Of a stretch of DNA of 36,759 bases, positions 10,762 through 36,253 are shown one piece after another. The DNA is taken from positions 1 through 36,759 of the IMG/VR virus record IMGVR_UViG_3300049207_000086. The stretch is one strand, 5' to 3'. How positions within the stretch are numbered: the first letter of the stretch is position 1; the number at the start of each line of letters is the position of its first letter. The notes under the pieces were generated by a model that was not told the DNA's origin, did no database searches, and worked only from the letters and a program-made list of their open reading frames with translations. The translations under genes were made by a program, and so were the position numbers. The stretch is from a virus (taxonomy: Duplodnaviria > Caudoviricetes).

Positions 10762-12111
10762 TTATTTTTTCGTCTGTACATCCACTTCTACTTCATCGTC
10801 GTTAACTGCTTCGGGGGTAGGCTCTGCTGGTGCTGATTTAGGCACCGGAACTGGTACATACTTAAAACCATCGCTGAGTTCTTTTGCCATGTGGCTTTTT
10901 AGCACTTCTATTTTGAGTGCTGTTTGCTCTTGAAATTTTTGGTGGTCAGTAATATTTAAGTTTTTTGCTGAGGAATGGACAGTTTCCCTTGCTACGACTA
11001 GAAGCTTGGCCAATATCAAGCGGTCGCCATGTATCTTGAATATTTTTTGAATCATTGCATTGGCGATTTTCCAGCTAGATATGATCGCGAGACCGAATAT
11101 AGCGGCAAACGGTATGCGCAACAGAAATGCGGCTATAACATCCGTTGCTGTTTGATATTCGCTTGTTATCAAATTGCTCGCCCCGACGTAGATCTGATAG
11201 ATAGAAAAAAATATGGCAGCTAGGGGAAGGGTTATCAGCGCGGCGTAAAGTTTTGCTTGGGCACTTCCTTCTTTTACATATGGGCCATATTCGTCGGATA
11301 TTAAATTTCTGTCGCTGGTTAGTTTTTGAAGTTGAGAGGTCAGGTCAGCAATGTCTTGGTTTAAATTTTTTGCTTGTTTTGATAGTTGCTCTGTGTTGTT
11401 TTTTGTTTCGAAGTTTATGTTGTCCAGATGTTTGTTTTTGTATTCTAAGTCCTTAATGGTGGTGGCTAGTTCTTCGATTGTGTTGGTTGCGGTATCGATT
11501 TCGTTTGTTAATAGGTAGTGTTGTGTATTGGCGTCAGTGATTCCTGATTCTAACTCGATCTTTATGTTTTTGACATCGATGATCTCATTTTTTAAATCGT
11601 TTAATGTAGTTTGGAGGTCATTTTTGTATTTGTTGAAATTTTGTTTCAGATTATGAAATTCTTCAATGTCGCTACAGTACTCGTTCAGCTCATTGAATGA
11701 AGCTCCGATAATTTCGATTTTCTGAAGCTTTGGCTTGAAGAGGGCTGAGCAAGATATTTCAAACCATTCGCAAAAGCCTTGGGCCCAACCATAGGCATAT
11801 GATTTCGAATGATCTAGTTTTATTTGCTTGGGTGTCTGGCCGATCAGTTTAACTGTCACAGTTACGTCAGTGGCAATGCTTCCTGGTTTTTCTCCATGAA
11901 GCCTGATGGTTCTAATGTAAGATAGCGAAGCAGTAGTGAAGCGCCGTGCGGTACCCGATGGTTTAATTCCTTCTGCAACACCATTCTCTGAAATTAAAGG
12001 TTGGAACTGATTAGTTGTTTTCCATAGTAAGTTCTGAATCGTGGCTATCGAAGGTATGTTTTCCAGGGCGTTTAACCCCTCATCGATCAGTTTCTGAGCT
12101 TCTTGGGTCAT
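10762..12111 (-). CDS. AT-rich accessory membrane protein (449 aa): beta-rich N-domain, long coiled coil, two TM helices
   Basis: AGGGAGG RBS before ATG 12111; heptad-rich middle region; hydrophobic LYAALITLPLAAIFFSIYQIYV and VIAAFLLRIPFAAIFGLAIISSW; visibly much lower GC than its flanks. Confidence 0.8.
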   Translation of the reverse strand: MTQEAQKLIDEGLNALENIPSIATIQNLLWKTTNQFQPLISENGVAEGIKPSGTARRFTTASLSYIRTIRLHGEKPGSIATDVTVTVKLIGQTPKQIKLDHSKSYAYGWAQGFCEWFEISCSALFKPKLQKIEIIGASFNELNEYCSDIEEFHNLKQNFNKYKNDLQTTLNDLKNEIIDVKNIKIELESGITDANTQHYLLTNEIDTATNTIEELATTIKDLEYKNKHLDNINFETKNNTEQLSKQAKNLNQDIADLTSQLQKLTSDRNLISDEYGPYVKEGSAQAKLYAALITLPLAAIFFSIYQIYVGASNLITSEYQTATDVIAAFLLRIPFAAIFGLAIISSWKIANAMIQKIFKIHGDRLILAKLLVVARETVHSSAKNLNITDHQKFQEQTALKIEVLKSHMAKELSDGFKYVPVPVPKSAPAEPTPEAVNDDEVEVDVQTKK

Positions 12112-12166
12112 GGCTACCTCCCTGTGCGGATATGAGCGCTTACGATAGCAGAATGGCCAATAGCCG

Positions 12167-13423
12167 CTATTGCATTCTTTTCCATTCGCGGTCGACGGCG
12201 CGTTTCGCAGTCCTTTCACTGGCATACAACCACCGCAACCGCTTCGGCTTGCTCTGATCCCCAGCCGTCGCAGTCTTCTCCTTCCCCGTTTTCTTATCGC
12301 GGTAATACGCGATGACACCTGTGTAATCCCCTTTATTTTCCTCCGCCAACCCCTCAACCGTATCCTCGGGCAGCTTACTCTCCAGTTCCAGGCTCACGGT
12401 GTATCCATTGTCGGGGCTGAGGGTGTGCTGCACGTTTCCGCCATACCAGATGATCTCGTCAATTTCCGGCTTCACGCCCTGGAGCGTGTAGGTCAGTTCG
12501 GGAATGAGGTCAGGCCGCCCCCGCGCCAGGGTATAGCTGAGCGTCGCGCTGCCACGTTGCAGGCGGTTGAATTCCGCCCGGGCAGCGCGCAGGGCGGACT
12601 GGCGGTCGCTGAAGGTGTGGCGTAGGTCTTTGAGGTTTTCACCACCGCCAGCGATGGCCTCCTGTTTCTTCGCGCTGTTTACGTCATAGAAATAGGCGCG
12701 CACACCGTCGTAACTGTCGCGATCGGCTTGCAGGTAGCGGTGCTGGTCTCCATCGGCGCGGGTGAGGGTGATATGCGGCAGCTCGGCGCCGGTGGCCGTC
12801 TTGCCGCCGCCCGCCGGCAGGCATAGCAGGCAGCCGGCCTTGACGGTGACCACCGCGTCGAACTCTTCCCCCATGCGGCTGATCAGGTTGGCGTCGGATT
12901 CGTTGGCCTGGTCCAACTGAAGGATGGGCAATCCGTCCAGGGCGCCGGCGATGGTGGCGGTGAGGCCGTTGCCCAAGGCGATATCGCCCAGGACGTCACC
13001 GAGGGTGGTGTTGCTCCAGCTACGCTCGCGTTTAGTCTTCAGGCCTTTGCGAAGGTCCGCCGAGCGGGCGCGGATGCTCAATACATCCGGCGCGCCGCAG
13101 TGTTCGGTTTCATCGACGGTGTAGGTGCCTTTGTCCACCAGGCCTGTATCGCTCCAACCCAGCCACAGTCGGATGGTCGCGCCTTTGGGCGGGATCGCCA
13201 GCAGCCCGTCGTGGTCGCTGAGGGTGATGCTGAGTTGGTCGGCCTCGATACCGCGATTGTCGGTCAGCTCCAGGCTCATCAGCCGTGGGCTGATCAACTG
13301 GGCGATGTCATTGCCATCGACGGTGATACGAAACGCCGGCACCGGGTAGGCCGCATCGCGGCGGTAGCGTTCGACCAGGTCTTCGACGTAGCCGGTCACC
13401 TTGGACAGGGCCGCATCAATCAC
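12167..13423 (-). CDS. P2 gpD-like baseplate hub/late control D protein
   Basis: RLMSLELTDNRGIEADQL, LWLGW..GLVDKGTY.VDE, DQANESD motifs; follows U. Confidence 0.9.
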   Translation of the reverse strand: MIDAALSKVTGYVEDLVERYRRDAAYPVPAFRITVDGNDIAQLISPRLMSLELTDNRGIEADQLSITLSDHDGLLAIPPKGATIRLWLGWSDTGLVDKGTYTVDETEHCGAPDVLSIRARSADLRKGLKTKRERSWSNTTLGDVLGDIALGNGLTATIAGALDGLPILQLDQANESDANLISRMGEEFDAVVTVKAGCLLCLPAGGGKTATGAELPHITLTRADGDQHRYLQADRDSYDGVRAYFYDVNSAKKQEAIAGGGENLKDLRHTFSDRQSALRAARAEFNRLQRGSATLSYTLARGRPDLIPELTYTLQGVKPEIDEIIWYGGNVQHTLSPDNGYTVSLELESKLPEDTVEGLAEENKGDYTGVIAYYRDKKTGKEKTATAGDQSKPKRLRWLYASERTAKRAVDREWKRMQ

Positions 13424-24125: not shown

Positions 24126-24416
24126 TCACCAGTCTTCAGACCGCTCTGTACGCTGGTGGAGGATACGCAGGATCTGAATTTCGCCATGTATCAGGCGGTA
24201 TGGGGCAATAAACGGAAACCTGGACAGCACCAACTCTCGAATATCTGGTACCTGAGATGGTCTGCCCAAGCCCGTGAAGGTTTCCAATTGCTCAAGTGCT
24301 TCAATGATTTCAGCAATTACCGCGTCTGCGGAGCGAGTCCCAAGGCGTGACTCGTAATATTCGTGAATGGATTCTAGATCACTGTCAGCTTTTTCCGTCA
24401 GCGCGATTTTTACCAC
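24126..24416 (-). CDS. Type II toxin, RelE/ParE family
   Basis: IALTEKADSDLESIHEY, GRP..DIRELV...FPFI..YR..EIQILRILH..E.W. Confidence 0.85.
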   Translation of the reverse strand: MVKIALTEKADSDLESIHEYYESRLGTRSADAVIAEIIEALEQLETFTGLGRPSQVPDIRELVLSRFPFIAPYRLIHGEIQILRILHQRTERSEDW

Positions 24417-24645
24417 GATTCACCCACTTAGCCTTGATGGCTTTCAGATCTGTCAGGTTGCCTGCATCAGCATCTGCGACACCTTCAGCTATAGCATTGA
24501 GATGCCATGATTCAGATTCAACATAACGGGCCAAGGCACGTTTGAGGTGATACTGGCGATCCCGATCAGTGGCCTCGGACAACTGATCAAGTTTTTCTAC
24601 CAATACGTCTTCGACACGGAATGACAACACAGGCGAAGCCATCAT
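24385..24645 (-). CDS. CopG/ribbon-helix-helix antitoxin
   Basis: VLSFRV...LDQLSEATDR.R.Y...ALARYV...I.EG.ADADAG; upstream of and overlapping the toxin. Confidence 0.85.
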   Translation of the reverse strand: MMASPVLSFRVEDVLVEKLDQLSEATDRDRQYHLKRALARYVESESWHLNAIAEGVADADAGNLTDLKAIKAKWVNRGKNRADGKS

Positions 24646-24663
24646 AAAGCCCTCATAACAAAA

Positions 24664-24712
24664 TGTATACAGCGTATACGGGTATAGCAATCGTATACTC
24701 ATAAAGGAATAC
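24664..24712. promoter_or_regulatory. Candidate antitoxin operator array
   Basis: GTATAC at 24665, 24674, 24693, with variants GTATAG 24682 and GAATAC 24707, just upstream of the antitoxin start. Confidence 0.6.
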
Positions 24713-25338: not shown

Positions 25339-25811
25339 TTAGGCACGACCCATTCGCTGCCGGTGCCTTGGGCGCCAGGTATCCACGCCGGATCGAGAAA
25401 CGCGGCTACATGCTGAGGTTCGCCGGGATGGTGGACGGTGGTATTGCCGTCGGCGTCTTTCCCCACTACCACACGCTCGGTCAGCGGCAGTGTCAGGCTC
25501 AGGTCCACCTTGCTGTTGTCCAGGATATCGGCCTCGAACAGGATGCCCTCTGCGGACTTGTTCAGGTTCTCCAGCAGCTCGGACTGGTTCACGCTCAGCC
25601 AGCCCAGCAACGGCAACATGACGCTGTCGGGGTGACCGGCGTAGTCGGTGAGGATGACCTGTAAATCAAAGCTGTATTCGAACGACAGCGAGGCAGCCGC
25701 GGTGCAGCGGATTTTGCCGTTGTCGATGAAGATCAGCAGCCGGTCGGGGTTGTGCTTGAGTTCGGCCACTGTGCTCAGCAGATGGGCCCGCAGGCTTTCG
25801 GGTTTGTTCAT
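25335..25811 (-). CDS. Tail completion protein R
   Basis: MNKPESLR..L...NPDRL.IFID.G...SLSFEY...LTERV; start trimmed to 25811. Confidence 0.92.
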   Translation of the reverse strand: MNKPESLRAHLLSTVAELKHNPDRLLIFIDNGKIRCTAAASLSFEYSFDLQVILTDYAGHPDSVMLPLLGWLSVNQSELLENLNKSAEGILFEADILDNSKVDLSLTLPLTERVVVGKDADGNTTVHHPGEPQHVAAFLDPAWIPGAQGTGSEWVVPK

Positions 25812-26065
25812 GGGGCCGCCTGTTGATGGTTGAAGACCATGTCTACCTGGCTGGCGCATTCGGCCCATGCGGCTTCGACGCGGTCCTGGTCGGTGAGCTG
25901 ATCGCCGTTATTGAGTGGGTTTGTCGCCGGTAGGGTGCAGGGCACCACGGCCGGACAGCCACTGACGATAAGCGTCGGCGCCGGTGAAGGCGGGGCGCTC
26001 GCGCAGCCGGCGAGCAAGCTCAGGCAAAGGCTGGTCAGCCCAGTCGCGAAGGTCTTCGTTTTCAC
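25808..26065 (-). CDS. lysC: o-spanin (LysC/Rz1-like lipoprotein)
   Basis: Lipobox LLAGC, Pro-rich segment, CP.V.PC.LP...NGD..AW..CA.QVD; overlaps lysB in another frame. Confidence 0.85.
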   Translation of the reverse strand: MKTKTFATGLTSLCLSLLAGCASAPPSPAPTLIVSGCPAVVPCTLPATNPLNNGDQLTDQDRVEAAWAECASQVDMVFNHQQAAP

Positions 26066-26351
26066 GTTTCAGCGCCTCGATGGTTTGCTCGCGCTTTGCC
26101 AGGCCCTGGCGCAGTTGATCCTGCTGGGTTCGCAGGGCAGCCTGGGCAATGCGCTCGTCGTTCAGGGTGTTTTGCAGGGTGCTGAGATTGGCGCGCAGCC
26201 TGTCAGCTTCTTCGCGGGCGATTTTGATGTCCTTTCCCGCCAGTTCGGTGTTCTTCTCGGCCACGGTGATGCGTTGTTCCTGGCCCCAGATGAGTAGTGC
26301 CAGGGTGCCCAGCAGGGCGATGCCGTACAGCGCCTGGCGCAGGGTACTCAT
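25908..26351 (-). CDS. lysB: i-spanin (LysB/Rz-like)
   Basis: N-terminal TM, coiled coil, LKRENEDLRDWADQPLP; start trimmed to 26351. Confidence 0.85.
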   Translation of the reverse strand: MSTLRQALYGIALLGTLALLIWGQEQRITVAEKNTELAGKDIKIAREEADRLRANLSTLQNTLNDERIAQAALRTQQDQLRQGLAKREQTIEALKRENEDLRDWADQPLPELARRLRERPAFTGADAYRQWLSGRGALHPTGDKPTQ

Positions 26352-26554
26352 GCGCGGTACCAGCCCAGTTTGTTCATGTCGCTGACATCCATCCGCTCCA
26401 CCGGACCTCGCAGGATGACGACCCGGCAACCAGGGGTCATGTAGGCCAGGGCTTCGCACAGCAGCTCCATATCGGCTTGCTCGGTATTCTCGGGCACCAC
26501 CAGCAAGCTGCCGTCCTGCACGTTCAACTGTTGCACGCGTTCAAGGTCGATCAC
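26348..26554 (-). CDS. Hypothetical 68-aa protein in the lysis cassette
   Basis: GTGA overlap with the upstream gene and ATGA overlap with lysB. Confidence 0.7.
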   Translation of the reverse strand: MIDLERVQQLNVQDGSLLVVPENTEQADMELLCEALAYMTPGCRVVILRGPVERMDVSDMNKLGWYRA

Positions 26555-27033
26555 TTTAGGAACTCTCCAAGGTAGAGCAGCCGAAATTCTTCCGGGCAGT
26601 GCGAAGCTCGGGCCTCTTCGAGAATGTCGGGCATATGGATCGGCCAGGTGTATCGGCAGAAGTGCCGGTTATTGGCTTCGATCAGGCGTAACAGCAGATC
26701 GTTTTCTGCGGTATGTACGCCCGCCGTTCGCTGGAATCTCGGTGTGGTTGCGTAAAAGGCGTCGGCCCGGATTCTGGTCGAGTTAAGCCAATCGAATTCG
26801 TCGTAAAACCAAACAGCGTCTTCAACGTCTTCACCGCATGGCACGTCTTCGCCATCTTCCAGAATCACCGCACCTGGCAAGCGGCGGCGCATGTCTTCGA
26901 CCAGCCCCTCCAAGGTAACGAAACAAACCTTCCTTCCCGCTTCAACGTAGGGTTTCGCACGTTGAACCAGTCGTTCGGTTTTCCCGGTTTGTCGCGGACT
27001 GATTTCAAGATGAGCAATTCGAAGGGGAATCAT
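26551..27033 (-). CDS. Stand-alone P-loop protein resembling a minimal terminase ATPase domain (160 aa)
   Basis: SPRQTGKT (Walker A), VWFYDEF (Walker B), YATTP (coupling motif), C-terminal PEEFRLLYLGEF; ATGA overlap with the endolysin stop. Confidence 0.75.
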   Translation of the reverse strand: MIPLRIAHLEISPRQTGKTERLVQRAKPYVEAGRKVCFVTLEGLVEDMRRRLPGAVILEDGEDVPCGEDVEDAVWFYDEFDWLNSTRIRADAFYATTPRFQRTAGVHTAENDLLLRLIEANNRHFCRYTWPIHMPDILEEARASHCPEEFRLLYLGEFLK

Positions 27034-27872
27034 GCCGCCACCGCCTGGCCGCAACCGCACTCAGCGTGCCGTTCGTAGGCCCGCTGGAGCTTGATGTCGT
27101 ACAGGTTCCGCTGGTAATCAGGGCCGTTGTAGAGCTTGGCGAATTCGGCCCATTTACGGCCTTTCAACGCCTTATGCAGCACAGGGTCGGTCTGGATGAA
27201 ACGCACGAAGGCGGCGAACTGTTGAGACTCGCCTGCGCTCATGTCCTCGACCAGCGCTTGCACGCTGGCATAGCCCAGACGCTGCCAGTGAAAGCCCATG
27301 ATCTGGAACGCGCCCCAGGAAGCGGATTCCAGCGCGGCGGTGTCGTCGATCAGGCGCGCATGGCCCAAGCGTTGATGCTCAGCAGTGCCGCCGGCATAGC
27401 CCCCGGACTTCGGATTGACGATGGCCGGATTGGCGACGGCCAGTTGGTCGGCGTGGCGCTTGAGTTCGTCGGGGTTGTCGCCTTCGTGGCGCCGCGTGGC
27501 GAGCTGGCGGTACATGATGTGCCGCTCGAACAGAATCACCGGCTTGCCATTCGTCAAGAAGCCCTTGCCCTTCGATTCAACCTCGTTGACGGCATAGACG
27601 CTTGCTAGTGGTACGTCGAGGATCTGCGCGGCCTGCACCAGGTCTTCGTTTCTCAACAGGAGCTGACAGTCACCGCCGGCCAGGCTGGCCTGGGTCTTTT
27701 CGCCGGCAACGCCATCGGCGACCAAGCCGACTTTCAACTGATACGCCCGCACGGCGGCCTCGGTGGAATCGCCATAGTCGCCATCCACCCCCAGCGCGGC
27801 GCCGTGTTCGTTCAGGTCTTTTTGCAGGATGCGCACCGCCTGGGAGCGGTCGCCGTGGCGAAGCGTCGTCAT
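27030..27872 (-). CDS. Modular endolysin: peptidoglycan-binding domain + DUF3380-type muramidase
   Basis: LRHGDRS..V..LQ..L...VDGDYG..T..AV..YQ...DGVAG; VNEVES, ILFERH, SWGAFQIMG, FAKLYNGP. Confidence 0.92.
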   Translation of the reverse strand: MTTLRHGDRSQAVRILQKDLNEHGAALGVDGDYGDSTEAAVRAYQLKVGLVADGVAGEKTQASLAGGDCQLLLRNEDLVQAAQILDVPLASVYAVNEVESKGKGFLTNGKPVILFERHIMYRQLATRRHEGDNPDELKRHADQLAVANPAIVNPKSGGYAGGTAEHQRLGHARLIDDTAALESASWGAFQIMGFHWQRLGYASVQALVEDMSAGESQQFAAFVRFIQTDPVLHKALKGRKWAEFAKLYNGPDYQRNLYDIKLQRAYERHAECGCGQAVAA

Positions 27873-28192
27873 AGCTGTTCTACCTTGCGAGTGAAAAACT
27901 TCTTGGCAGCGGCGCGAGTCCCCTCGACTCCAAGCAAACCGATTACCCCACCGAAGAAAGGTGCGGTTGAGGCGGGGATACCGAGCAGCGCCAAGCCATG
28001 ACTGGCGGCCAGTGCCAGGGCGCCGCAAAGGGGGGCCTCGACTGCCATCCGTCGCAAGGTGCCGCCGCCATACATGATCCGTAGAGCGGCGATGGTCAGA
28101 GCCAGAATCCCCGCATAAAGGGCTGGCCAGTTTTGCTCGAGCCAGGCGGCGAGCCAGGCCCAGGTGTCGGGACGTTCAGGCATGCGCTTCAT
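27869..28192 (-). CDS. Lambda-S-like holin
   Basis: Three hydrophobic segments, LRIMY.GG, EA.LCG.L, GG.IG.LGV, basic C-terminus; MKRM start. Confidence 0.85.
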   Translation of the reverse strand: MKRMPERPDTWAWLAAWLEQNWPALYAGILALTIAALRIMYGGGTLRRMAVEAPLCGALALAASHGLALLGIPASTAPFFGGVIGLLGVEGTRAAAKKFFTRKVEQL

Positions 28193-31726: not shown

Positions 31727-31772
31727 GGGGCAGCGCTATTGAGTCGTCGCCATGGGCGGCAGCATCTCGGCC

Positions 31773-33533
31773 ATGACGACGACCTGCCTGCTGCCTATCG
31801 ATCCACGACGCCAATCCAAGTTCCTGTACTGGATGGGTTGGCGCATCTGCGAGATTGCCGAGGCTACGGGCGAAAAGGAAAAAACGCTACACAGCTGGAA
31901 GGCCCGCGACGAGTGGGACCGGGCCGACAATGTTGAACGCATCGGTGGCGCCCTGGAAGCGCGTTTGGTGCAGTTGATCCTCAAGGACAACAAGACCGGC
32001 GGCGATTTCAAAGAGATCGATCTGCTGCATCGTCAGCTTGAGCGCCAGGCCCGCATTCAGCGCTTCCAGGACGGTGGTACCGAAACCGACCTCAACCCGA
32101 ACCTCGCCAAGCGCAACGAGGGGCCGAAGAAAAAGTCACCGAAGAACGACATCAGCGAAGACCAGATCGAGCTGCTGCGCGAGGCGTTCATCGACGGCTG
32201 TTTCGACTACCAGAAAGACTGGTACCGGGCCGGTAACCAACGCACCCGCGTCATCCTCAAGAGTCGGCAGATCGGCGCCACGTACTACTTCGCCCGTGAG
32301 GCGTTTATCGACGCCCTGGACACCGGTCGCAACCAGATTTTCCTGTCGGCTTCGAAGAACCAGGCCTACCTGTTCCGTGGCTACATCCAGGCCTTCGCCC
32401 GGGAAGTCATCGGCGTCGAGCTGACGGGTGACCCGATTGTGCTGCCCAACGGCGCCGAGTTGTTTTTCCTCGGGACCAACGCCCGCACCGCCCAGGGTTA
32501 TCACGGCAATTTCTACTTCGACGAATTCTTCTGGACGTTCAAGTTCGAGGAGTTGAACAAGGTCGCCTCGGGCATGGCGATGCACAAGAAGTGGCGCAAA
32601 ACCTACTTCTCCACGCCGTCGAGCATGGCCCACGAGGCCTACACCTTCTGGACCGGCGAGCGCTTCAACAAGGGCAAACCGGCCGCGCAGCACACCAAAG
32701 TGGACGTGACCCACGGCGCGCTCCAGCAGGGCCGGTTTTGTGAGGACCGGCTGTGGCGACAGATCGTCACCATCCTCGACGCCGAGCGCGGCGGCTGCGA
32801 TCTGTTCGACATTGAGGAGCTGCGCCGAGAGTACAGCCCCGAGGCCTTCGCCAACCTGCTGATGTGCGAGTTCGTTGACGACGGCGCGAGCATCTTCCCG
32901 CTGTCGGTGTTGCAGTCCTGCATGGTCGATAGCTGGGTGGAGTGGGCCGAGGACTACAAACCTTTCGCCATGCGTCCGTTCGGCGACCGCCAGGTATGGG
33001 TCGGCTATGACCCGGCCGAGACGGGCGATTGTTCTGGCTTGGTGGTGGTTGCGCCGCCCCTGGTGCCGGGTGGCAAATTCCGCGTGCTCGAGCGCCACCA
33101 GTTTCGCGGCATGGACTTCGCCGCCCAGGCCGCCGCCATCAAGGGCGTGTGCGACCGATACTGGGTCACCTACATCGGTATCGACGTCACCGGCCTGGGT
33201 AGCGGCGTTGCCCAGCTGGTGCGCCAGTTCTTCCCGGCTGTGACCACCTTCAGCTACTCGCCCGAGGTGAAAACCCGCCTGGTGCTGAAGGCCTACGACG
33301 TGATCCACAAGGGCCGGCTGGAGTTCGACGCCGGCTGGACCGACATGGCCCAGTCGCTCATGGCGATTCGCAAAACCATCACCGCAGGCGGTCGCCAGTT
33401 CACTTACACCGCCGGCCGCAACGACAACACCGGCCATGCCGACCTGGCCTGGGCGCTCTTCCACGCATTGCAGAACGAACCGCTCGAAGGGCAGACCACT
33501 GCCAATACCGGGCGAATGGAGATTTTCACATGA
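31773..33533 (+). CDS. Terminase large (ATPase) subunit P
   Basis: LYWMGW HTH, LKSRQIGAT, FLSAS, FDEFFW, FSTPS, VGYDPA, HADLAWA; start could be 31752. Confidence 0.96.
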   Translation: MTTTCLLPIDPRRQSKFLYWMGWRICEIAEATGEKEKTLHSWKARDEWDRADNVERIGGALEARLVQLILKDNKTGGDFKEIDLLHRQLERQARIQRFQDGGTETDLNPNLAKRNEGPKKKSPKNDISEDQIELLREAFIDGCFDYQKDWYRAGNQRTRVILKSRQIGATYYFAREAFIDALDTGRNQIFLSASKNQAYLFRGYIQAFAREVIGVELTGDPIVLPNGAELFFLGTNARTAQGYHGNFYFDEFFWTFKFEELNKVASGMAMHKKWRKTYFSTPSSMAHEAYTFWTGERFNKGKPAAQHTKVDVTHGALQQGRFCEDRLWRQIVTILDAERGGCDLFDIEELRREYSPEAFANLLMCEFVDDGASIFPLSVLQSCMVDSWVEWAEDYKPFAMRPFGDRQVWVGYDPAETGDCSGLVVVAPPLVPGGKFRVLERHQFRGMDFAAQAAAIKGVCDRYWVTYIGIDVTGLGSGVAQLVRQFFPAVTTFSYSPEVKTRLVLKAYDVIHKGRLEFDAGWTDMAQSLMAIRKTITAGGRQFTYTAGRNDNTGHADLAWALFHALQNEPLEGQTTANTGRMEIFT

Positions 33534-34621: not shown

Positions 34622-35482
34622 ATGACTGTTACGCTGGTTTCCGGTGTTGATGCCAACAGAAAAATCTGGAGATACATGACTCTCGATAAGTTTATACACT
34701 TGCTTGATAGTGAGACGCTCTTTTTTAGCTCGCTGAACTCATTCAAAGAAACTGATCCTTTTGAAGGTATACCTCCTGTCGATATTATAAAAAAAATCAG
34801 GAAAATAGTTCCAATTTCTGCTGGTCTTAAATCTGCGCTAGCAAATATCGAAGAGAAAGCCGGCTCCCTTTCCGTAGCGGAGCTCAAGGCGCTATTTGCC
34901 CAGCTGCCTGAGCACATTAAATTAGAGCATCAGGGTTTTAGGGAGTTGATTATTGGTTTGTTTAAAGGCTACGTAGTTAACTGCTGGCACGCCAATGAGT
35001 ACGAGTCCGAGGCTATGTGGAAATTATATGGTGATAGTCACAGGGGAGTAGCGATTCAAACTACTGTTGGCAAATTACAGGAAGCATTGCAGAGTGACGA
35101 GAAGATAAAAATTGCTGAGGTCGTTTATTCGAGTTATGAAGCACCTTCGCAAGAAGTATTACGCCTGTTGGTTACCACTGGACTGGGGCCCGTTATGAAA
35201 CGTCAGTCTTACTCGCATGAGGCCGAGGTCCGTGCCTATTTCTTACCTTCTTCGCATAAGGTTGGTTCGGATGCGCCTGAGGCAAAGTCTCAAGTGGTTA
35301 AAGTCAGCGGCCTTAACTTCATAGATAACATAGTGATTTCTCCGTATGCGGGCGAGCCTTACACTTCTGCTGTCAAAGCAGTGGCGGCAAAGTATGATTT
35401 GAACTGTCCGGTAAAGCTTTCCAACTTGCTTCAGGGGTTTGATAGTCTTTTTAATCTTGGTGAGCATGAAAGCCTTTTTTGA
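34622..35482 (+). CDS. DUF2971-domain protein, low-GC cargo
   Basis: IWRYM..DKF..LL...LFF...F..DPFEG, CWH...ESEAMW.LY...GVAI, KR.SY.HE.E.R pattern; own RBS; AT-rich. Confidence 0.75.
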   Translation: MTVTLVSGVDANRKIWRYMTLDKFIHLLDSETLFFSSLNSFKETDPFEGIPPVDIIKKIRKIVPISAGLKSALANIEEKAGSLSVAELKALFAQLPEHIKLEHQGFRELIIGLFKGYVVNCWHANEYESEAMWKLYGDSHRGVAIQTTVGKLQEALQSDEKIKIAEVVYSSYEAPSQEVLRLLVTTGLGPVMKRQSYSHEAEVRAYFLPSSHKVGSDAPEAKSQVVKVSGLNFIDNIVISPYAGEPYTSAVKAVAAKYDLNCPVKLSNLLQGFDSLFNLGEHESLF

Positions 35483-35560: not shown

Positions 35561-36253
35561 TCAAGGCTCGATTCTTTTTATAAGCTCTGGTCCTAGGTTT
35601 TTCACGTTTCCGACTGCTTTGCTAACCGGATACCATTCAAAGTCTTCGGCCGGCTGACAACCTTCCTTGGCAATTTCGCTAGCACGCCCTAGCTTCAAGT
35701 TAGGACTCAACCACTCGCGAGCCAGATCCGGCGCAAGTACCAGGGGCTTTCGATCATGAATATCCACCATGCCCTGTTCGCTGGCAGCGGTGATGATGAC
35801 GAAGCCGTCCCCTTCCTGGCCTTCAAGCCCTGGTTGGGCCTGAGCAAGGGCACCGAAAAACATAGGCTTCTGGGTTTTCAGGCGAATGAAGTAAGGCTGT
35901 TTCTTCTTCGGGTCGATTGGATCCCTGACCCACTCATACCACCCCTCGCTTGGAACCAGAGCACGTCCGTTCGGCCACAGCTGTTTGAAGAACTTCCCAG
36001 TTGTGACGGTTTCAACCCTCGCATTGATGGGATCGGGACGTTTTCCCTTTGCCCAGAATGGCGACCAGCCCCACCTGATAGGGGTGATGTGGAGGCCGGC
36101 GTCGCTGGTGTGCAGGATTTGCACGCGAGTCGTCGGGGCGATGTTGTACCGGTTGATCGGTATTGCATCGAAACCGCTGAACAGCGGGAGCTGCGGCCCC
36201 AGCTCCTCCATAAACACCGCCATCCCTTCGTACTGCACGAATCTCCCGCACAT
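35561..36253 (-). CDS. SOS response-associated peptidase (SRAP/YedK, abasic-site protein)
   Basis: MCGRF (catalytic Cys2), RYNIAPT, RWG, INARVET, GWYEW, KQPYFI, IHDR.P, VS..VGN. Confidence 0.93.
   Translation of the reverse strand: MCGRFVQYEGMAVFMEELGPQLPLFSGFDAIPINRYNIAPTTRVQILHTSDAGLHITPIRWGWSPFWAKGKRPDPINARVETVTTGKFFKQLWPNGRALVPSEGWYEWVRDPIDPKKKQPYFIRLKTQKPMFFGALAQAQPGLEGQEGDGFVIITAASEQGMVDIHDRKPLVLAPDLAREWLSPNLKLGRASEIAKEGCQPAEDFEWYPVSKAVGNVKNLGPELIKRIEP

Follow-up and report, generated by a model that had tools for sequence, protein, structure and literature searches.

Background

What does a stand-alone ATPase that resembles a terminase do in the lysis region of a prophage? The question is raised by the virus record IMGVR_UViG_3300049207_000086 (Duplodnaviria; Caudoviricetes), a stretch of 36,759 bases that is rated complete and was analysed at its full length (from here: the window). 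Its left part carries the host genes for a transaldolase and Dus, followed by a P2-like prophage with an integrase, Ogr and P2-type head and tail genes; close relatives of this prophage were found in Pseudomonas genomes. The late operon has the order gpX, holin, endolysin, mini-ATPase, 68-aa (amino acid) gene, spanins and gpR, and the gene of the large terminase gpP is located in a divergent operon. The mini-ATPase, a predicted protein of 160 aa, had been noticed in an initial annotation as a possible decoy for terminase-sensing immunity. Our tentative answer is that it may be a decoy, occupying the ATPase pocket of Avs3-type sensors without switching them on.

Fold and motifs of the mini-ATPase

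The predicted structure of the mini-ATPase has an additional strand, conserved glutamate (ASCE) ATPase fold with a lid subdomain of the large terminase type. The lid helices align with those of terminases and not with human or Thermotoga thymidine kinase, and the TM-scores favour terminases (0.53–0.61 against 0.39–0.52). Four motifs that had been read as parallel to gpP were found again in the same order in both proteins: ISPRQTGKT (residues 11–19), WFYDEFDW (75–82), FYATTP (93–98) and ILEEARASHCPEEFRLLYLGEF (137–158) in the mini-ATPase, LKSRQIGAT, FYFDEFFW, YFSTP and IEELRREYSPEAFANLLMCEF in gpP. Residues were counted in an alignment of 147 members, excluding fusions and members with an extended N-terminus. 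Two residues, K18 and R102, are invariant (147/147 each), and R14 (145/147), G17 (144/147), T19 and D78 (142/147 each) are nearly so. R21, F80, D112 and L114 are kept in 141–146 of the 147 members and the catalytic E79 in 136, with D in the remaining 11; the motif III residues T96 and T97 are found in 137/147 and 133/147 members.

The parallel to gpP is borne out for the colinear order of the motifs; the sequence likeness itself is weak and remote. BLASTP aligned only the last 22 residues (E 0.042), and the family hidden Markov model reached gpP with an E of only 0.85 in a search of the 278 open reading frames (ORFs) of the window. The family profile was colinear with gpP over 151 columns (probability 28%, E 6e-4), and a wider profile scored 22.6 against the gpP ATPase alignment, with a maximum of 19.6 in 60 column shuffles. 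Judged from these alignments, the likeness exceeds chance but is distant. A recent duplication of gpP is ruled out by this remoteness, as the initial annotation had held, which also rightly pointed to the Walker A lysine kept in the mini-ATPase (G-K-T) and missing in gpP (G-A-T). The non-canonical Walker A of gpP (SRQIGAT, no lysine) is nevertheless under very strong purifying selection, with a ratio of nonsynonymous to synonymous substitution rates (dN/dS) of 0.02.

The firmer link to terminases is the predicted fold together with one relative. None of the Terminase_6N and TerL PHROG profiles matches the window protein, and among 76 members a single one matched Terminase_6N (E 8.6e-5) and phrog_2 (1.4e-11); one member of this set matched phrog_38, and two matched phrog_7579 weakly. 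The window protein had no useful match in Pfam, PHROGs, NCBIfam, PADLOC or PDB sequences, an ESM Atlas search returned only unnamed clusters above 0.9, and Foldseek against the PDB gave no match at E 0.001, with kinases, Rho and terminases mixed. The label "Zona occludens toxin N-terminal" on two UniRef entries was not backed by any Pfam match of the 76 members.

A thymidine kinase had been named as the alternative, and a P-loop RecA-like core of the thymidine kinase type (PF00265) is indeed present. The match reached 11.4 bits against a Pfam gathering score of 20.6 and covered residues 8–41 only, and hhalign against T4 thymidine kinase gave a probability of 2%. Thymidine kinases are marked by a zinc-binding lasso domain and a DExQF Walker B; two CxxC motifs were found in 0/147 and DExQF in 0/147 members. 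The predicted lid, the TM-scores and the missing zinc lasso support a stand-alone terminase-type ATPase domain over a thymidine kinase. A small metabolic enzyme from the terminase/helicase clade in a broader sense, i.e. a nucleotide or small-molecule kinase or nucleoside triphosphatase (NTPase) serving, for example, nucleotide supply or DNA modification, is improbable. The same motif counts and TM-scores and the exchange of the catalytic E for D argue against it, and expression from the late operon of P2-like phages would come too late for precursor supply.

Several parts of a working terminase are missing. The 147 aligned members have no more than 24 residues (median 15) ahead of the lysine and thus no adenine-binding Q-motif, whereas gpP has DYQ about 20 residues upstream. 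The C-terminal RNase H-like nuclease domain is missing as well; the protein ends at residue 160, and the best 150 of 442 profile matches have 81–282 aa. Walker A and Walker B are closer together in the family (median spacing 61) than in gpP (81). Many terminases have their trans finger ahead of Walker B; an RG/KG finger-like motif at this place exists in just 15/147 members. The protein is acidic (isoelectric point 5.4) and has no hydrophobic membrane segment. We infer an ATP-binding monomer that would be unable to run as a motor. Six distant members (P0140, P0261, P0190, P0209, P0215 and P0244) have N-terminal extensions of 50–70 residues, two of which look ribbon-helix-helix-like by eye.

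Distribution, selection and mobility of the gene

A single-sequence search yielded 65 relatives, nearly all with 150–174 aa, a profile search 333 clusters at 90% identity and an exhaustive profile search 442 clusters at 50% identity, 226 of them at E 1e-10. Among the best 150 of these 442 clusters, 144 have 130–230 aa, and there is no full terminase.

The gene is maintained by selection. Its dN/dS is 0.16–0.28 (Nei-Gojobori, 11 closest loci, some of them redundant), compared with 0.02 for gpP and 0.10–0.14 for the endolysin, which excludes a pseudogene in neutral decay. The start and the stop each overlap a neighbour by 4 nt, as noted before. At the same time, the gene is optional. Among 64 viral loci with the 68-aa gene, a sample biased to the window's 68-aa sequence and partly redundant, 12 carry the mini-ATPase, 50 have the endolysin directly next to the 68-aa gene and 2 are truncated. 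It is also missing in 13 of 22 loci whose endolysin is 89–97% identical to that of the window. An alignment with the empty site shows the mini-ATPase as a 479-base insert between overlapping stop and start words, and in another clade it is located on the opposite side of the 68-aa gene. Its GC content at third codon positions is 0.59, versus 0.67–0.84 for eight other genes of the phage. In three loci (L016–L018) its dS of 0.54–0.56 exceeds that of the endolysin and the 68-aa gene (0.11–0.18), which points to allele exchange. The mini-ATPase is an optional, conserved gene under purifying selection that is gained and lost as a whole unit, and the junction of endolysin and 68-aa gene is a place where the late operon tolerates inserts.

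Within 26555–26575 (minus strand), the codons for the conserved G-E at the C-terminus form a GGAG ribosome-binding word for the next gene. A GGAG-type word at the end of the mini-ATPase gene is found in 44 of 60 loci and may help the gene to slot into operons.

These data also bear on a role as a dominant-negative subunit, either poisoning the motors that package satellites or competing phages or modulating the motor of its own phage. The terminase fold without nuclease and, judged by position, co-expression with the packaging genes would suit such a role, and the short Walker A to B spacing and the rare RG/KG motif are compatible with a protein that could cap the ring. We nevertheless regard it as quite improbable. 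Because P4-type satellites use the helper's own gpP, such a subunit would hurt its own phage, and a late gene would be silent in the lysogen. Moreover, the same family occurs in phages with unrelated motors, and the mini-ATPase tree has far longer branches than the gpP tree (a quick tree only) and differs from it in places.

Genomic context

In 60 loci including the window, the 68-aa gene followed by the mini-ATPase was found 23 times, the reverse order 19 times, the mini-ATPase directly after the endolysin without a separate 68-aa gene 8 times and another arrangement 10 times. The location between endolysin and spanins given in the initial annotation holds for the window, except that there is no direct contact with the spanins, as the 68-aa gene intervenes.

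Another reading couples packaging to the timing of lysis through ATP sensing, a role in which the 68-aa neighbour might share. In 50 of the 60 loci the gene directly follows the endolysin or the 68-aa gene, which would fit, as would a distant member between endolysin and spanin in Aeromonas phage LPM4, another next to an unrelated amidase endolysin (L198) and two fusions with the 68-aa protein. Nonetheless, this link is very improbable. Most related cassettes (52 of 64) do without the gene, the protein has no membrane segment, one member (L038) is flanked by head-completion and tail-completion genes and well away from the lysis genes, and the large-phage members lie in replication regions. Because of these contexts outside lysis modules, the mini-ATPase is not a lysis component.

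For 16 distant loci and the 166 kb Pseudomonas phage Cygsa01, 94 of about 136 flanking ORFs were annotated. The Cygsa01 member is located upstream of a sliding clamp gene, near a 5-hydroxymethyldeoxyuridine kinase and an amino acid:DNA transferase. In three loci (L204, L210, L213) the gene has RecA with polymerase B or a glycosyltransferase nearby, Mom or DruA-like genes adjoin it in four (L208, L209, L211, L219), and in L208 an Acb2/Tad1 domain is encoded two genes upstream. Ribonucleotide reductase, thioredoxin or inosine monophosphate dehydrogenase genes were seen near other distant members. The four loci with Mom or DruA-like genes are large AT-rich phage contigs and possibly represent a counter-defence or DNA-modification cluster.

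The 68-aa gene is a near-constant member of the lysis cassette between endolysin and spanins, with a conserved MNxxGWY tail, and is duplicated in two loci (L006 and L041). Its product is fused to the mini-ATPase in P0063 (E 3e-6) and in L039 (by eye). An obligate partnership was rejected, as each gene occurs without the other and the 68-aa gene is mostly found without the mini-ATPase. The confident structural model (pLDDT 88) is a small alpha/beta protein without a fold match (best E 0.2), a named Atlas cluster or a counterpart in annotated phages. The fused gene (L039:9112-9951) ends the late operon; the match to the spanin and tail genes stops there and a 911-aa primase-like ORF follows.

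Comparison with known terminase-like proteins

Stand-alone terminase-like proteins are already in print, whereas for the sequence family described here none of Pfam, PHROGs, NCBIfam and PADLOC offers a model that matches the window protein. Neither this family nor a terminase decoy was described in the open-licence PMC and bioRxiv literature searched, as far as its accessible text goes. The large terminases P74-26, D6E, HK97, Sf6, T4 gp17 and PhiV-1 gp19 share with the mini-ATPase the fold including the lid, the P-loop arginine, the Walker B D-E pair and motif III. In contrast to them, it lacks the Q-motif and the nuclease, has a shorter middle segment and is encoded outside the packaging operon, beside a complete gpP.

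The closest parallel is T4 vs.8 (PHROG 1488), which Evans et al. 2026 (PMC13601566) describe as uncharacterised, ATPase-like and a homologue of the ATPase domain of terminases. Like the mini-ATPase, it is a stand-alone, nuclease-less, terminase-like ATPase, with GRQSGKS in place of PRQTGKT. The vs.8 profile was matched weakly by 8 of the 76 family members (best E 1e-6; the three matches shown cover the N-terminal half only) and not by the window protein at E 0.1. In hhalign, the alignment (33 columns) is confined to the Walker A helix. The mini-ATPase family starts at strand 1 and retains the lid, whereas vs.8 has a long N-terminal stretch and, judged by eye, stops shortly after motif III. EcAvs2 has been shown to be triggered by vs.8. 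The mini-ATPase family occurs in temperate P2-like phages.

Ksap2 of phage Bas60 is a shown trigger of KpAvs2 with a narrow taxonomic range (Bechon et al., PMC11564622). A truncated terminase beside terL is reported for Rak2-like phages (PMC5259590). This protein, CBB_274, is like the mini-ATPase an incomplete terminase domain beside a full terminase in the same genome; it adjoins terL and matches the gp17 domain model, while the mini-ATPase family is found away from terL and its window member matched no library model. DSAD1, a phage protein that competes with the trigger for a sensor (PMC11087589), serves as a functional model only; its sensor is DSR2, the trigger a tail tube protein, and no homology is claimed. 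The anti-Avs3 proteins ORF55 and ORF83 of the EVADES preprint are, according to its accessible text, not terminase-like. Thymidine kinase TK1 is set apart from the mini-ATPase by its zinc lasso and DExQF motif and by the Pfam cut-off, below which the mini-ATPase falls.

Evans et al. treat the role of stand-alone terminase-like proteins as an open question and suggest anti-defence for vs.8 (PMC13601566). The mini-ATPase could likewise be a counter-defence NTPase that binds or hydrolyses nucleotides and acts on another host target, its terminase shape reflecting ancestry and any recognition by Avs being incidental. This is unlikely, although the complete catalytic set with family-specific invariant residues, the optional and mobile gene, the role suggested for vs.8 and Ksap1/2 (PMC13601566), the Acb2/Tad1 gene near one member and the Mom or DruA-like genes adjoining four others are all in line with it. 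The context points to no target, and the mini-ATPase keeps the terminase lid, which is apparently missing in vs.8.

Discussion

How could a terminase-type domain serve as a decoy? According to a preprint on Avs2-trypsin (10.64898/2026.08.25.746987), the ATPase by itself is sufficient for Avs2, and the contacts include the arginine of the P-loop with the glutamine that follows it, Walker A residues and the catalytic glutamate. The form recognised by Avs appears to be the monomer (PMC13581612). The mini-ATPase would be made from the late operon simultaneously with gpP and would bind ATP-Mg as a monomer unable to join the motor ring. What Avs sensors read, namely the arginine of the P-loop, the nucleotide and the glutamate of Walker B, would be on display, and the protein, lacking the nuclease domain, might fail to complete Avs3 activation while competing with the few gpP molecules. 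The cost would be detection in hosts with Avs2 or Upx, as EcAvs2 detects T4 vs.8, which would explain the patchy presence of the gene.

The initial annotation had proposed a decoy for Avs1-3 in general. It is plausible for Avs3-type sensors only, because ATPase-only terminases trigger EcAvs2 and Upx and mostly fail with SeAvs3. Values with SeAvs3 were 3.35, ≤1 and 8.45 for three of them and at least 1000 and 440 for two (PMC13601566). Avs3a-like genes occur in 16 of 301 Pseudomonas genomes, and L147 matches SeAvs3. The kept sensor-read residues, the loss of a domain that Avs3 often needs, the expected co-production with gpP and behaviour like arms-race cargo are the points for which we lean, with reservation and at less than even confidence, towards a decoy.

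Considerable evidence weighs against this reading. Every tested stand-alone look-alike is a trigger and not an inhibitor: vs.8 together with EcAvs2 was 499-fold toxic, though not with SeAvs3 or KpAvs2 (PMC13601566), and Ksap2 fires KpAvs2 (PMC11564622). ATPase-only terminases fired EcAvs2 in 5/5 and SeUpx in 7/7 cases, and even SeAvs3 was fired by 2/5 (PMC13601566). The terminase table of that study names 37 phages, and P2 is not one of them. In the sensor complex, ATP is held by the Q-motif residues Q138/R140/Q143 (10.64898/2026.08.25.746987), which have no counterpart in the mini-ATPase. The family's own conserved residues R21, R102 and D112 suggest a specific chemistry or partner beyond mimicry. 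In large phages, genes for replication and DNA modification make up most of the neighbours, and only one scanned locus (L208) has a known anti-defence domain close by; Avs2 also exists in Pseudomonas (3 near-full-length matches in 201). When the mini-ATPase was modelled together with ATP, Mg and the last 794 residues of a Pseudomonas Avs3, the predicted complex scored 0.23 and 0.31 against a mark of 0.32, with no controls folded, and weighs neither for nor against a decoy. The mini-ATPase occurs in 5 of the 301 Pseudomonas genomes and in none of the 16 Avs3a-matching ones, and a gpP-like gene in 3 of 21 Avs-matching genomes, numbers too small to weigh.

It is somewhat doubtful whether the decoy reading extends to the family as a whole. 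In that case this widespread family (P2-like prophages to jumbo phages, more than 400 clusters at 50% identity) would consist of purpose-built terminase mimics, reduced to the ATP-loaded face of the active site that NLR-like sensors of the Avs3 type read, and would jam terminase-sensing immunity. Avs2 and Upx, for which the ATPase domain is enough to fire, would be the counter-move of the host.

Other features of the window

The coordinates of the mini-ATPase, its motifs and the neighbouring genes are compiled in Table 1.

Table 1. Location of the mini-ATPase, its sequence elements and associated genes in the window
Feature	Position	Strand	Remark
Mini terminase-like ATPase, 160 aa	26551..27033	-	Optional 479-bp insert
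Walker A with P-loop arginine, residues 11–19 ISPRQTGKT	26977..27003	-	K18 147/147, R14 145/147 aligned members
Walker B and catalytic carboxylate, residues 75–82 WFYDEFDW	26788..26811	-	D78 142/147, E79 136/147
Motif III-like strand FYATTP (93–98) and family-specific invariant R102	26728..26757	-	R102 147/147
C-terminal lid helices 135–155 and GEF strand	26557..26631	-	Aligned to terminase lids
68-aa gene, PHROG 10352	26348..26554	-	Usual mini-ATPase neighbour, either side
Endolysin, peptidoglycan-binding domain and muramidase, upstream neighbour of mini-ATPase	27030..27872	-	
Holin (Phage_holin_3_1)	27869..28192	-	
Inner and outer spanins (Rz/Rz1-like)	25808..26351	-	
Large terminase gpP: helix-turn-helix, ATPase, RNase H nuclease	31752..33533	+	Comparison partner, presumed trigger of host sensors

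Further genes of the window lie apart from this locus. A ribbon-helix-helix antitoxin and ParE-family toxin pair (24126–24702, minus strand) is inserted between gpS and gpV, in a slot whose length differs among relatives. Directly after the portal gene, a DUF2971 gene (34622–35482, plus strand) matches the PADLOC candidate defence system PDC-S31 (E 1.3e-20) and is followed by an SRAP peptidase gene (35561–36253). A 531-aa coiled-coil ORF (10762–12357, minus strand) after gpD was not assigned a function; its weak PADLOC matches span the coiled coil only.

Conclusions

Avs sensors are thought to be hard to evade because they read immutable features of the terminase active site. If the decoy reading is true, the phages would counter Avs sensing directly, with a mimic in which just these features are kept. 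The family makes the role of stand-alone terminase-like proteins testable, as its members are small and predicted to be soluble, as temperate Pseudomonas phages with and without the gene exist naturally, and as Avs3 and Avs2 both occur in the same genus as the carriers of the mini-ATPase. Even a negative outcome would define what Avs3 needs for its activation.
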